Positions 3,168-17,048 of a stretch of DNA of 24,648 nt are shown here, piece after piece (positions within the stretch are counted from its first letter, which is position 1; each line of letters begins with the position of its first letter). This DNA is from Candidatus Cloacimonadaceae bacterium. Lineage in GTDB: Bacteria > Cloacimonadota > Cloacimonadia > Cloacimonadales > Cloacimonadaceae. The stretch lies in assembly GCA_046485025.1 (NCBI GenBank), contig JAWOHU010000111.1:1-24648 (forward strand). Reading direction: 5' to 3'. Below the pieces are notes generated by a model that saw only the letters and a program-made list of their open reading frames with translations, made no database searches and had not been told where the DNA came from. A program made the translations under genes and the position numbers.

Positions 3168-3629
3168 TTGCAGTACTACCTTGGTATCGACCCCGGACGC
3201 AAAGGCGGTTTTGCTTTGATAGACGAGTACAAGAACCTGATTTACATTGAGCCTATGCCTTTGCTGGAAAAAGGTTACAACTATCCACTGATGGTCAGTA
3301 TGATAGAAAAACTGCCTGACACTACTAACATCATACTCGAACTCAAACCCGGCGTCATGGAACAGTCTGCCAGTCCCACCACCAGCTTCGGATTTCACTG
3401 CGGAGCCCTCTATGGCATCTGTCTGAAACACAGACTGCAAATAGTATCTCCCAAATCCTGGAAAGCTGAATTTGACGTCAACCGCAATTACAAAGAGTCA
3501 CGTCAGGATATGAAATTGCGCTCTGTTCAGATGGCGGAAAAGCTGTTCAACCTTAAGTTCAAAAGCACGGAAGACGGTCTGGCGGAAGCTCTGCTCCTGG
3601 CAGAATACGGCAGAAGACATCACTTATGA
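3168..3629 (+). CDS. RuvC-like (phage/MOC1-type) Holliday-junction resolvase-like nuclease
   Basis: TTG start. YLGIDPG (Asp8), IILE (Glu58), SPKSWK and C-terminal DGLAEALLLAEYG form the RNase H-fold acidic set typical of phage-type RuvC. Confidence 0.75.
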   Translation: MQYYLGIDPGRKGGFALIDEYKNLIYIEPMPLLEKGYNYPLMVSMIEKLPDTTNIILELKPGVMEQSASPTTSFGFHCGALYGICLKHRLQIVSPKSWKAEFDVNRNYKESRQDMKLRSVQMAEKLFNLKFKSTEDGLAEALLLAEYGRRHHL

Positions 3630-4003
3630 CTTCGGATTTTAACATTAGCGTCATGGAATCTCTGGCAGAAACGCATCTGGTCTGTGACTCCTCATATCCT
3701 CTGATTACCAATACCACTCTGCAGGAAGAAGCTCTGCTCTATAACCTCGATGTATCTGCAGTGTCAGAACTGATAACAAAATTCAATACTCTGACCGGAA
3801 AACAGATTTCATCTGCTTATGACATCAACAATCTGTCAGGAGGACAGAAGGTCATTTTGATGATTCTGCTGGCTCTCCACTCTCCGGCAGAGAATATCGT
3901 TTTTACTAATCTGAAAGTATCGCTGGACAGCATAAGACTAAAGGATGTTATGACTTTAATAGAATCCTGCCAAGCTCAAAAACGAGAAATCCTGGTCAGG
4001 TGA
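3626..4003 (+). CDS. Partial ABC ATPase (helical subdomain, signature and D-loop only); probable ECF A-component fragment
   Basis: LSGGQ at aa 70-74 and SLD D-loop at aa 99-101 with canonical spacing. The Walker B DE position is TN, and there is no Walker A or H-loop. ATGA overlap with the previous gene. Confidence 0.65.
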   Translation: MTSDFNISVMESLAETHLVCDSSYPLITNTTLQEEALLYNLDVSAVSELITKFNTLTGKQISSAYDINNLSGGQKVILMILLALHSPAENIVFTNLKVSLDSIRLKDVMTLIESCQAQKREILVR

Positions 4004-4536
4004 TGATTGTGAATTGGGTTGTTCCTGCAGAGGTTTATCATATCTGGACTGACTTTAGTCTGGAAATAGACAGTGAACTTGTCTTTGCCATAGGCAAGTG
4101 CTACCATCTGACCGGACAAAACGGAGCAGGCAAAAGCAGTTTTATCAAGAAAGTGCTGATACCTCAATTATTAAAACAACAATCCTTACAATTCATTCTC
4201 TATCTGGAACAGCAGGTACAGAGCCAGCTCGATGCAGTCAAAGCCAATGCCGCTCTGCAGAAACCGGCTATGCATATCAACACGATTGATGAGATGTTTG
4301 ACTATCAGTTAAAGCAATTGTCCCGTCAGCTTGCTGCAGAACCCAGACCCGTTATCATCATATTGGATGAGACAATTCTCTCTGACCTCATCAATCAGTG
4401 GCTGAACAAAGTATCAGTGGAACAGGCCTGCCTGATTTATATCTCTCATCAGGATTTTGATTTCCCCAGTTTTAAGGAGGTAATTAAAATCAATTTAAAG
4501 CCAGTCTCAGTCAGCCTTTCAAGGATTGAGGTATGA
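4000..4536 (+). CDS. Short ABC ATPase lacking signature and D-loop; probable ECF A-component
   Basis: Walker A GQNGAGKS (aa 39-46), Q-loop ILYLEQ, Walker B IIILDE (D123-E124) and H-loop IYISH (H150). The signature position reads MFDYQ. GTGA overlap with the previous gene. Confidence 0.75.
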   Translation: MMIVNWVVPAEVYHIWTDFSLEIDSELVFAIGKCYHLTGQNGAGKSSFIKKVLIPQLLKQQSLQFILYLEQQVQSQLDAVKANAALQKPAMHINTIDEMFDYQLKQLSRQLAAEPRPVIIILDETILSDLINQWLNKVSVEQACLIYISHQDFDFPSFKEVIKINLKPVSVSLSRIEV

Positions 4537-5150
4537 ATCCTCTGCTGAAAATCATAACTCTGCTCATCATCCTGACGCTGTTTATCTGGATAGTGTCTTT
4601 CCGGCTGATGGAAAACCTGCCCTGGCAGTTTGCCTTTCTGCTGGTTCTGATTGCCTCGGGAATGCTCAGGTTCGGCCTCAGAAAGTGGTTTAATGAACTG
4701 AAACTGATTCTGCCTTTCATTCTTACCATGCTCATTGTCTATGTCCTGATTGGGCTGATTACTGCAAAAATGCGCTATTGGCTGATTTACGGCTTGCTCA
4801 GAAGTCTGAACTTTATCAACACCATGTTCTTTATACAGCTTACATTATCATACATTTCTATCAATGATATAATCGCTTTGCCCCTGAGTATCGATGCTAA
4901 AAAACACCTGATTCTGGGCAGAGCGCTGTTTAGCCATGCTCTATTGCAAATCGGCAACATCGAGTTTCACCTCAGACTGCTGCACGAATTCCAGAAGCCG
5001 AGACTCAGTTTGAGACTGTGGTTTGCTCTCAGGCTGCAGCAATCCTTTGCCATCATCATTATGCTGCTGCGTGAATCAAAACTGAAGGGCGAATTGATTG
5101 ACAACCGCATCCGGCATTGTTATATTATTAATAACAGAGAAAATCCTTAG
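4533..5150 (+). CDS. ECF transporter transmembrane T-component-like (EcfT/CbiQ-like) protein
   Basis: About four N-terminal TM helices, then amphipathic coupling-helix-like segments with Arg at the usual XRX positions (HLRL, DNRI). Sits between ABC ATPase genes and an S-component. Confidence 0.62.
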   Translation: MNPLLKIITLLIILTLFIWIVSFRLMENLPWQFAFLLVLIASGMLRFGLRKWFNELKLILPFILTMLIVYVLIGLITAKMRYWLIYGLLRSLNFINTMFFIQLTLSYISINDIIALPLSIDAKKHLILGRALFSHALLQIGNIEFHLRLLHEFQKPRLSLRLWFALRLQQSFAIIIMLLRESKLKGELIDNRIRHCYIINNRENP

Positions 5151-5160
5151 GGAGGATGAA

Positions 5161-5619
5161 ATGAAATGGTATTATCTGGTCGGCATCACTATTGCAGTGA
5201 TGGTCATCACCTTATTTATCAGGATACCTTTGCCGAGCAAGGGATACTTCAATTTCGGCGATGTAGCTGTGGTCTTTTCAGGTCTGTTCCTCGGTTTCAA
5301 GGGCGGAGCCATAGCCGGCGGAATTGGTTCTGCACTGGCAGACATTTTGGGCGGATTTCCGCTCTTTGCACCTCTAACTTTAATAGCCAAAGGTCTGGAA
5401 GGTCTGATCAGCGGTTTTGCCAAAGATAAGAAAGGCTTTACCTTCTATCTGTATCCTGCCTTGGGTGTCATCATCATGGTGGCAGTGTATTTTGTGGGAG
5501 AACTGCTGATGCCGCAAATCGGTATCGGCGGCGCTTTGGCAGAACTTCCCGCCAATCTGATTCAAGCCGGTGGCGGTTATGCCGGAGGCATTATCCTCAG
5601 TAAATTAATCAGGCTCTGA
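5161..5619 (+). CDS. ECF transporter substrate-specific S-component
   Basis: RIPLPSKGYFNFGD...GGIGSALADILGG...TLIAKGLEG pattern, typical of ECF S-components; about 152 aa, hydrophobic. Start set at ATG 5161 behind GGAGG (5151-5155) rather than at 5098. Confidence 0.85.
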   Translation: MKWYYLVGITIAVMVITLFIRIPLPSKGYFNFGDVAVVFSGLFLGFKGGAIAGGIGSALADILGGFPLFAPLTLIAKGLEGLISGFAKDKKGFTFYLYPALGVIIMVAVYFVGELLMPQIGIGGALAELPANLIQAGGGYAGGIILSKLIRL

Positions 5620-5666: not shown

Positions 5667-5760
5667 GAGGTGAACGAACATGATGATTATGAACTCCTAA
5701 ATCCGTAATAACTGCAACTCGCACACTAAGAACAAATCCATCTGAACAAAGGAGTTTATA
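5667..5760 (+). promoter_or_regulatory. Candidate translational attenuator: uORF MMIMNS* (5680-5700) with an anti-SD for hflX
   Basis: SD GAGGTG at 5667-5672 precedes ATG 5680; stop TAA at 5698-5700. TATGAACTCCT (5688-5698) pairs 11 bp (one G-U) with AGGAGTTTATA (5750-5760), which is the hflX SD plus the A of its start codon. Confidence 0.5.
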
Positions 5761-7088
5761 TGTATCACGACGATTTTGACCAATTTGACGAACTGGAAAT
5801 AGAATCACAATCCGAAGAGTGGGAAGAGCTTGCTCCGTCTGATGATTCCGCTTTCCTGGCGGCTTTGGGCAGGCAGGCAGACAAACCGGAAGAGATAGAA
5901 GCCTCGCTTGCCGAACTGGAACGCCTGGCTTACACAGCCGGAATATCTGTTCTGGGCAAGTATTATCAACGCCGCAATAAACCTGAGAAAGGAACCCTCT
6001 TCGGTAAAGGCTGGCTGCAGGAAACCGCTCAAACCATGAAACAGGCAGGAGCCGGACTGCTAATTGTCAATGAAGAGCTCTCCCCCATGCAGGGACGCAA
6101 TATTGAGCAGGATTTTGACATTAATGTTATCGACCGTACTGAAGTCATCCTCACCATCTTTCACAATCATGCCCGTTCCCGTGAAGCCAGGCTGCAGGTC
6201 AGACTGGCGGAACTGGAATATCAGCTTCCCCGACTGCGCAAGCTTTGGGGTCATTTTGACAAGGAACGCGGCAGTATGCGTGCCGCCGGCGGTTCTGCCT
6301 CACGCGGCATGGGTGAAAAGCAGATTGAAATTGACCGCCGCATCATCAAGCGTGACATTGCCAAAATCAAACGCATCATCAATGAGATTGTAAAGCAAAA
6401 ACTGACTCAGCGCAAACAGCGTGAAAAGGTGAAAAAGATCTGCCTGGTCGGCTACACAAATGCCGGAAAGTCCACTCTGTTCAATGCTCTGACCGACGCC
6501 GGTGTCCTGGTTGAGGACAAACTCTTTGCCACTCTGGATTCCACCACCCGTCAACTCAAAATGGAAATTGGCGGCAATGTGGTCATTTCTGATACCGTCG
6601 GTTTTATTTCCAACCTGCCGCATCATCTGGTGGCTTCGTTTAAAGCTACTCTGATGGAAGTGGAGGATGCGGATTTGCTGCTGCATATGATTGACAGTTC
6701 GGATGACAGGTATGAGGAATACATCCGGCAGGTGGATAACGTCCTGACTGAAATTGAAGCTCAGCACATCCCTCAACTGCTGGTCTTTAATAAAATTGAC
6801 CGCATCGGCGAAAACCTGCTGTCCTTACTGAAAAAGAAATATCCCGAAGCTGTGTTTATCTCAGCGCTGAATCAGACCCATCTGGATGAGCTTAAAAAGC
6901 GGATTGATGCTATTGTCTTCAAAGCTTTTTCCTGTAAACTGGTCATTCCCTATTCCGAAACCAGGCTGGTCTCCAAACTGCACGAAACAGCTCAAATCAT
7001 CTCTGAAGAATATACAGACCAGGGCATTAATCTGGAAGTCATTCTGAACGGCGAGGACAAATACATATTTGAAGAATTCATTGTCTAA
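5760..7088 (+). CDS. hflX: Ribosome-splitting GTPase HflX
   Basis: DRTEVILTIF, LAELEYQLPRL, GEKQIEIDRR, G1 VGYTNAGKST, LFATLD, DTVGF and NKID. SD AGGAG. Confidence 0.97.
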   Translation: MYHDDFDQFDELEIESQSEEWEELAPSDDSAFLAALGRQADKPEEIEASLAELERLAYTAGISVLGKYYQRRNKPEKGTLFGKGWLQETAQTMKQAGAGLLIVNEELSPMQGRNIEQDFDINVIDRTEVILTIFHNHARSREARLQVRLAELEYQLPRLRKLWGHFDKERGSMRAAGGSASRGMGEKQIEIDRRIIKRDIAKIKRIINEIVKQKLTQRKQREKVKKICLVGYTNAGKSTLFNALTDAGVLVEDKLFATLDSTTRQLKMEIGGNVVISDTVGFISNLPHHLVASFKATLMEVEDADLLLHMIDSSDDRYEEYIRQVDNVLTEIEAQHIPQLLVFNKIDRIGENLLSLLKKKYPEAVFISALNQTHLDELKKRIDAIVFKAFSCKLVIPYSETRLVSKLHETAQIISEEYTDQGINLEVILNGEDKYIFEEFIV

Positions 7089-16840: not shown

Positions 16841-16916
16841 GCATCTTTAGCTCAGCTGGTAGAGCAACTGACTCTTAATCAGTGGGTCCGGGGTTCGAGT
16901 CCCCGAAGATGTACCA
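16841..16916 (+). tRNA. tRNA-Lys (anticodon CTT)
   Basis: Cloverleaf: acceptor GCATCTT/AAGATGT, D-arm GCTC/GAGC, anticodon arm ACTGA-CTCTTAA-TCAGT, T-arm CGGGG-TTCGAGT-CCCCG, and an encoded ACCA end; 76 nt. Confidence 0.98.
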
Positions 16917-16967: not shown

Positions 16968-17013
16968 AGCGGTAATTTGCTCTTTGCTCCGCTTTGTAAA
17001 TGTGCTAAAGTGC
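16968..17013 (+). ncRNA. SAM-II/SAM-V-like riboswitch aptamer (H-type pseudoknot) upstream of metK
   Basis: P1 AGCGG/CCGCT (16968-72/16989-93); loop 1 TAATTT; P2 GC(T)CTTTGC (16979-87) with GC(T)AAAG(T)GC (17004-13), leaving U17006 unpaired; loop 3 TTGTAAATGT. This matches the remembered SAM-II pattern UGAUUU...UUGC...AAAU...GCUAAA, and the downstream gene is SAM synthetase. Confidence 0.75.
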
Positions 17014-17022
17014 TTTTTTCAG

Positions 17023-17048
17023 AGCCGGCTTTAGCGTCGGCTTTTTTT
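17023..17048 (+). terminator. Intrinsic terminator in the metK leader (riboswitch expression platform)
   Basis: Stem AGCCGGC/GTCGGCT, loop TTTAGC, then a T7 tract, ending 22 nt before the metK start. Confidence 0.75.

Follow-up and report, generated by a model that had tools for sequence, protein, structure and literature searches.

ABC transporters are usually described as needing two NBDs and two ATP sandwiches. In the canonical NBD dimer each ATP is held by the Walker A, Q-loop, Walker B and H-loop motifs of one subunit together with the signature and D-loop of the other. Canonical ECF modules contain two complete ATPases of ~220-290 aa with two ATP sites; in group I (L. brevis, 4hzu; L. 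delbrueckii, 5d3m and 8bms) EcfA, EcfA' and EcfT are combined with an S-component. [quoted passage not shown]

It is established that ABC heterodimers may pair a consensus site with a degenerate one, and this arrangement is common (PMC3971661). In TM287/288, TAP1/2, CFTR and BmrCD a single hydrolytic site draws Walker A, Walker B and the H-loop from one NBD and the signature from its partner, and the motifs of the other site are dispensable. The NBDs of these proteins are of full size, and the degenerate site is a folded nucleotide-binding pocket. In Rad50 and SMC proteins two non-contiguous pieces share the ABC ATPase function, one having Walker A and the other the signature. They complement each other in cis as a single NBD, in which the signature piece also carries Walker B and the H-loop.

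We analysed a window of 24,648 nucleotides (positions 1 to 24,648 of contig JAWOHU010000111.1, assembly GCA_046485025.1) from a Candidatus Cloacimonadaceae bacterium. Five tightly packed ORFs (U, A, B, T, S) are found on the plus strand at positions 3168-5619:

ORF U, 3168-3629, plus strand, 153 aa.
ORF A, 3626-4003, plus strand, 125 aa; P-loop-less ABC NBD fragment, putative donor of the signature motif and D-loop.
ORF B, 4000-4536, plus strand, 178 aa; compact catalytic-type ABC NBD, judging by its motifs and predicted fold.
ORF T, 4533-5150, plus strand, 205 aa; polytopic membrane protein and probable EcfT-like scaffold, highly divergent.
ORF S, 5161-5619 (ATG at 5161), plus strand, 152 aa; ECF S-component, PF07155.

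The cassette resembles group-I ECF transporters in several respects. One operon with the fixed order A-B-T-S has, in its upstream part, the genes for two cytoplasmic subunits derived from ABC domains, and both have EcfA chains among their fold matches. The adjacent membrane protein T has the size and layout of EcfT and a C-terminal Arg motif, and S belongs to a recognised family and is homologous to 4hzu_S. Unlike in canonical ECF modules, the two subunits have 125 and 178 aa, and their motif content permits only one site. The C-terminal dimerisation domains of EcfA and EcfA' are absent from A and B, and T does not match PF02361. A-B-T-S probably constitutes a dedicated micronutrient importer of ECF type, whose motor would be an asymmetric A:B pair forming one composite ATP site, the second site having been deleted. 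We give somewhat better than even chances to the stricter formulation, that a minimal one-site motor of 125 + 178 aa, in which the second site is physically deleted and not merely degenerate, is the sole power source of an ECF-type importer, with one ATP spent per cycle.

The U/A, A/B and B/T junctions are 4-nt start/stop overlaps; at the last of these the start of T overlaps the stop of B (ATGA). The frame of ORF A is closed upstream by TAA at 3554-3556, and thus an in-frame Walker A upstream of A cannot be encoded. An alternative start of B, GTG at 4009, was assigned by the gene caller (P0002) and yields a 175-aa protein; it is preceded by AGGTGA at 3998-4003. The residue numbering of B follows the 178-aa version throughout. 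The glmS gene and ORF U are found upstream of the cassette only within the genus, and thus are outside the module.

ORF A contains the signature LSGGQK at residues 70-75 (nt 3833-3850) and the D-loop S-L-D at residues 99-101 (nt 3920-3928). The 32 residues from L70 to D101 align without gaps to the LSGGQK...SALD segment of ABCB4, with T94-N95 opposite the Walker B D-E. There is no P-loop, catalytic Glu or H-loop in A. The same motifs, their canonical spacing and the same losses had been given in the preliminary description of this DNA, and they are confirmed here. When the profile of A was run against PDB sequences, it matched ABC NBDs over the signature and on to the D-loop, with ABCB4 matched at 2e-7 without gaps. 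The scores with the Pfam family PF00005 (ABC_tran) are 13.2 bits for A (E 0.14) and 18.2 bits for B (E 0.0038, Walker A region only), both below the gathering threshold of 25 bits, and the NCBIfam matches of A and B are all far under the cut-offs. A does not match the Pfam family DUF4869 at E up to 1. One orthologue of A is automatically named 'ABC transporter domain-containing protein' in UniProt.

The AlphaFold2 model of A has a pLDDT of 90.6. Its top-50 matches in Foldseek and VIA are all ABC NBDs (Z up to 11.4, rmsd ~2.7 A over ~120 residues), and residues 1-125 map by structural alignment to residues 37-193 of LptB, 37-190 of MalK and 41-201 of EcfA. In the predicted structure A is an NBD running from the P-loop helix to the H-loop strand. 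It retains the Q-loop strand (with Q replaced by D21), the signature helix, the Walker-B-type strand and the D-loop helix, and its C-terminus lies one residue past the strand that normally bears the H-loop. The helical subdomain comprises ~45 residues, among which P25, E35 and Y39 are invariant. Thus the initial statement that A keeps only the trans motifs stands for the motif set; it does not stand for the protein as modelled, which spans the NBD from the P-loop helix to the H-strand with a helical subdomain and a remnant of the Q-strand.

ORF B has W16 at the A-loop position, 23 residues ahead of the P-loop, followed by Walker A GQNGAGKS (G39-S46, nt 4114-4137), the Q-loop residue Q71, which comes behind a beta strand, then Walker B D123-E124 (nt 4366-4371) and the H-loop residue H150 (nt 4447-4449). 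The site of LSGGQ, at the start of the helix before the Walker B strand, is occupied by non-conserved sequence. The residues following D-E are not conserved, and thus B has no D-loop. In a profile search against PDB sequences B matched ABCF1 (N-terminal half, 1.3e-7), with plausible alignments of Walker B and the H-loop. The AlphaFold2 model has a pLDDT of 93.5. Foldseek results were ambiguous, with ABC, KaiC and ORC proteins at TM ~0.4-0.5; after re-alignment with VIA the top-50 matches are all ABC NBDs (150-160 residues aligned, Z ~10-10.7). Residues 1-178 map onto NBD residues ~1-224 of EcfA-type proteins (4mki_B, 5d3m_A, 6zg3_F) and other transporter ATPases. The predicted structure comprises the whole NBD core with the helical subdomain cut to two helices, ~45 residues being missing.

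The Pfam matches of B are sub-threshold and belong to generic P-loop families, and source annotations name it 'hypothetical' or 'Cdc6-like AAA ATPase'. One possibility suggested by these matches and names is that the cassette does not encode a transport motor, B being a stand-alone P-loop switch or regulatory NTPase that, with A and T as accessory proteins, regulates a solitary S-component transporter. Indeed, some solitary S-components transport without an ECF module (PMC11109136), and a conventional EcfA-EcfA'-EcfT module of the same genome, described below, could serve S. However, all top-50 fold matches of B are ABC NBDs, EcfA among them, and little or no variation is seen in its ABC-specific Q-loop, H-loop and A-loop. 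Moreover, the partner protein A bears an ABC signature, and the four genes are translationally coupled and co-inherited. We consider this possibility improbable.

Both A and B have the ABC NBD fold, a RecA-like core with a helical subdomain, in truncated or reduced form. The full motif set (Walker A, Q, signature, Walker B, D-loop, H) is present in neither chain and is complete only in the pair. The elements required for one site are conserved, namely the A-loop, Walker A, Q, D-E and H of B and the signature of A, with the D-loop of A conserved only in the main clade. All elements of the second site are missing: the P-loop, catalytic Glu and H-loop from A, and the signature and D-loop from B. 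The Q-strand, Walker-B strand and H-strand are present in each of the two predicted structures. Since each protein has its own core strands, A and B would be two NBD-like bodies and not pieces of one. That A would be a second body of reduced size speaks for head-to-tail pairing around a single ATP sandwich.

A different arrangement is suggested by the helical subdomains, as the two helices of B stand against a subdomain of ~45 residues in A with its three invariant residues. A could mainly be an adaptor supplying the lost helical, coupling-helix-binding subdomain of B, docking in cis on B or bridging B and T, possibly as (AB)2. There would then be zero or two sandwich sites, and the signature of A would not be used as proposed here. 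The assembly of ABC domains from separate N- and C-terminal pieces has a precedent in Rad50 and SMC proteins, seen in the PDB matches, and SMC3 and Rad50 are among the weak sequence matches of the A and B profiles. Prediction of the complex of B, ATP and A yielded a median score of 0.63, compared with 0.46 for one unrelated control partner, a result that we count neither for nor against contact of A with B and that does not fix its geometry. On the other hand, the Q-, Walker-B- and H-type strands of A duplicate those of B and form a second NBD-like core, and the invariance of S-G-G-Q-K in all 42 orthologues is difficult to explain in a pure adaptor. B has no signature, and thus a B-B sandwich is impossible. 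An adaptor role of this kind is unlikely, though less so than the regulatory role considered above.

The head-to-tail pair with one sandwich can be compared with both groups of described proteins. As in TM287/288, TAP1/2, CFTR and BmrCD, the Walker A, Walker B and H-loop of a single candidate hydrolytic site come from one subunit and the signature from the other. Unlike in these proteins, the elements of the second site are deleted, and the P-loop of A is absent. As in Rad50 and SMC proteins, Walker A and the signature reside in two separate pieces. Unlike in the latter, B unites D-E and His with Walker A, and A represents another NBD in reduced form.

Adjacent separate genes for A and B, with identities of 32-68%, were observed in 20 of the 24 sampled genomes of the same family, representing 10 of 11 genera. 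In sampling across the phylum, 71 of the 88 genomes of that family gave a match to B. All 35 loci fetched from GTDB species representatives (two of them cut by the contig end) are from MAGs of Candidatus Cloacimonadota, Cloacimonadaceae or Cloacimonas. The order A-B-T-S is the same in all 20 relatives fetched and in every sufficiently long GTDB locus, and wherever the locus extends far enough, T is followed by the S gene. Four genomes (L029, L080, L087, L091) encode T and S as a single fusion protein of 366 aa. Each of the 41 genomes searched either has A, B and T together or lacks all three, and the co-occurrence of orthologues proposed at the outset as a check is thus seen for the linked set of three.

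A version of ~25-30% identity with the same four-gene layout was found in the metagenomic contigs L045, L107 and L109 and in a second Cloacimonadota family (L111-L113). In L106, also of the divergent version, the contig is cut after T and A-B-T is visible. The signature in this version is (L/Y)SGG(Q/E), the D-loop Asp of A is replaced by His or Ser, and B retains Walker A, Q, D-E and H.

The motif residues are conserved far beyond chance, as judged from the alignments. S71, G72, G73, Q74 and K75 of A and G39, N41, G42, G44, K45, Q76, D123, E124 and H150 of B are invariant in 42/42 unique orthologues; Q71 of B and D101 of A are present in 41 of the 42. The motifs of B that the preliminary description had listed as kept (Walker A, Q-loop, Walker B, H-loop) are thus confirmed and near- or fully invariant, and the signature and D-loop that it had listed as lost are indeed absent. 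In orthologues of A the position of the catalytic Glu is occupied by Asn or Asp, and that of the Walker B Asp is variable. Synonymous sites are saturated in most pairs of genomes, and only the pair L039/L040 is fully informative; in this pair A has a dN/dS of 0.33, B of 0.25, T of 0.14 and S of 0.08. A and B are under purifying selection. A search of sequencing runs for expression of the genes gave one weak match (0.05 of words) and no RNA run.

The short ORFs, the sub-threshold family scores and the 4-nt overlap could also be produced by remnants of EcfA/EcfA' pseudogenes, by an assembly or frameshift error, or by programmed frameshifting of a single gene. However, the separate ORF pair recurs in 20/24 genomes of the family, B in 71/88, and both in a second family. 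The motifs are invariant, the dN/dS values of A and B are below 0.35, and the predicted folds are confident. Between genomes the relative frame of A and B differs and their spacing ranges from an overlap of 26 nt to a ~50-nt gap, and thus recoding into one protein is unlikely. No fused (~300 aa) or full-length A-B protein was found with the B profile among 5.8 billion proteins or with the A profile among 1.8 billion representatives. B-type matches are 166-196 aa long and A-type matches (E below 1e-10, 57 clusters) 81-176 aa long; beyond these, the matches are generic ABC proteins. One 176-aa protein, P0099, is an apparent chimeric call in which a T-like N-terminus is joined to an A-like C-terminus.

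We therefore reject pseudogenisation, assembly error and programmed frameshift, to which we assign a negligible probability. Full-length orthologues, named in the preliminary description as a sign of recent decay or misassembly, did not appear: in close and distant relatives alike the proteins are miniature, separate and never fused. Its two related arguments are upheld. The complementary losses reflect selection and not decay, given the invariant motifs, the dN/dS of 0.25-0.33, the confident folds and the fixed cassette. The pair is not a frameshifted single domain, given the upstream TAA in the frame of A and the varying A-B spacing.

The N-terminal part of T consists of four hydrophobic helices, with amphipathic segments after them. 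The conserved motif G-E-L-I-D-N-R-I-x-H-C in its C-terminal part falls on the second L-R-G-F (X-Arg-X) motif when T is aligned with canonical EcfT. Comparison with the canonical EcfT of the lineage by hhalign yielded a weak match (E 8.6e-4, probability 23%), collinear over 170 columns. Among the Atlas language-model neighbours of T are, at 0.95, a cluster named 'putative cobalt transport protein' and, at 0.87, an EcfT cluster, the latter regarded as a lead only. T has no match in Pfam, including PF02361, and its profile found nothing among PDB sequences at E up to 10. T is probably kin to EcfT through a weak link. The X-Arg-X-like motif is well conserved at one place only (N-R-I), and thus the anchoring of both A and B is uncertain.

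S matches PF07155 with E 1.2e-24 (87.7 bits, cut-off 26.7), and its nearest solved chain is 4hzu_S, the S subunit of the L. brevis ECF complex (E 1.4e-10). By these matches S is a bona fide ECF S-component. The 4hzu_S-like family has been proposed as a carrier of HMP or pyridoxine-type compounds. A riboswitch or RNA leader that might serve as a clue to the substrate was sought in the window with Rfam at gathering thresholds, and only a tRNA was found.

Another contig of the same genome contains a conventional module of EcfA-like (233 aa), EcfA'-like (221 aa) and CbiQ/EcfT (237 aa) proteins. Thus the miniature module is an addition and not a replacement. Comparison of A and B with the canonical EcfA-like proteins of the genome by hhalign, aimed at the origin of the pair, produced short local matches and no paralogue signal.

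The following mechanism may be proposed; in it we infer the A:B geometry, the binding of T, the ATPase activity, the stoichiometry and the substrate. Mg-ATP would be bound by B through the A-loop Trp, Lys45 of Walker A and Q71; A itself could not bind a nucleotide. Head-to-tail closure of A onto B would bring Ser71 of LSGGQ and Asp101 of the D-loop to complete the site of B, creating one sandwich per motor. ATP would be hydrolysed by Glu124 and His150 of B, and this step would reset the system. By analogy with canonical ECF transporters, the closure of A on B would act on T and S: the ATP-driven closing and post-hydrolysis opening of A relative to B would move the cytoplasmic coupling helices of T, and S would be toppled or released. 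The stoichiometry is presumably one ATP per cycle. The closure may not be stable, because half of the usual NBD-NBD interface is missing.

The preliminary description knew of no ECF transporter with such a layout, and our literature search likewise found no paper describing this two-piece, one-site arrangement. Current profile libraries miss A- and B-type proteins, which the sources list under the names given above. As proposed here, the layout would take the logic of the asymmetric ABC heterodimer to its limit in a group-I-like ECF transporter.

Whether one site is sufficient, and what the degenerate site contributes in asymmetric transporters, are open questions in the ABC field. Here a conserved module apparently dispenses with the second site, and its motor comprises ~300 residues in two chains. 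If the proposed reading is true, the module would be a small scaffold for structural and engineering work and would make the ATP-to-substrate stoichiometry of ECF transport addressable. It would also allow a test of how coupling helices read a half-size NBD pair, and would provide a natural system for the minimal requirements of the ABC power stroke.

Two open reading frames flank the A-B-T-S cassette on the same strand:

3168-3629, forward strand, ORF U (153 aa), upstream of the cassette; its stop codon overlaps the start of A (ATGA)
5760-7088, forward strand, ORF of 442 aa downstream of the cassette, with the G1 motif GYTNAGKST

ORF U matches the Holliday junction resolvase family PHROG 1770 at E 5.4e-17. 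Pfam gave no match for it, and its position between glmS and the cassette is seen within the genus only. The downstream ORF, which by eye looks like an HflX-type GTPase, adjoins the cassette, and this arrangement is kept within the genus.

The Rfam scan covered the whole window at gathering thresholds and yielded a single match:

16841-16913, forward strand, tRNA (70.6 bits)

No riboswitch family passed the threshold at 16968-17048, before metK, where a SAM-II/V-like element has been proposed.

The same genome (G000) also carries a conventional ECF module:

contig C120 (locus L049, 1402-3466), minus strand, conventional ECF module

Its ATPases are short (233 and 221 aa) and have the non-canonical signatures LSAGW and LSSGE. 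The Walker A, Walker B and H-loop motifs are intact in both.

In four Cloacimonadota genomes T and S are fused into a single protein of 366 aa:

L029, 4182-5282, T-S fusion gene
L080, L087 and L091, 4831-5931 or 2857-3957, T-S fusion genes

These fused genes provide a Rosetta-stone-type hint that T and S interact. A different combination was observed in P0099, a metagenomic protein of 176 aa from the A-profile search, where approximately 95 T-like N-terminal residues are followed by approximately 80 A-like C-terminal residues with LSGGQK...SLD. It comes either from a rearranged locus or from a chimeric assembly or gene call.

A divergent version of the cassette was found in genus g41 of a second Cloacimonadota family (loci L111-L113). 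Its A proteins (135-150 aa) have the signature LSGGEN, and S-L-D is replaced by E-S-L-S; the B proteins (188-196 aa) contain an insertion preceding Walker B. This divergent cassette would be useful for finding which residues are truly indispensable.
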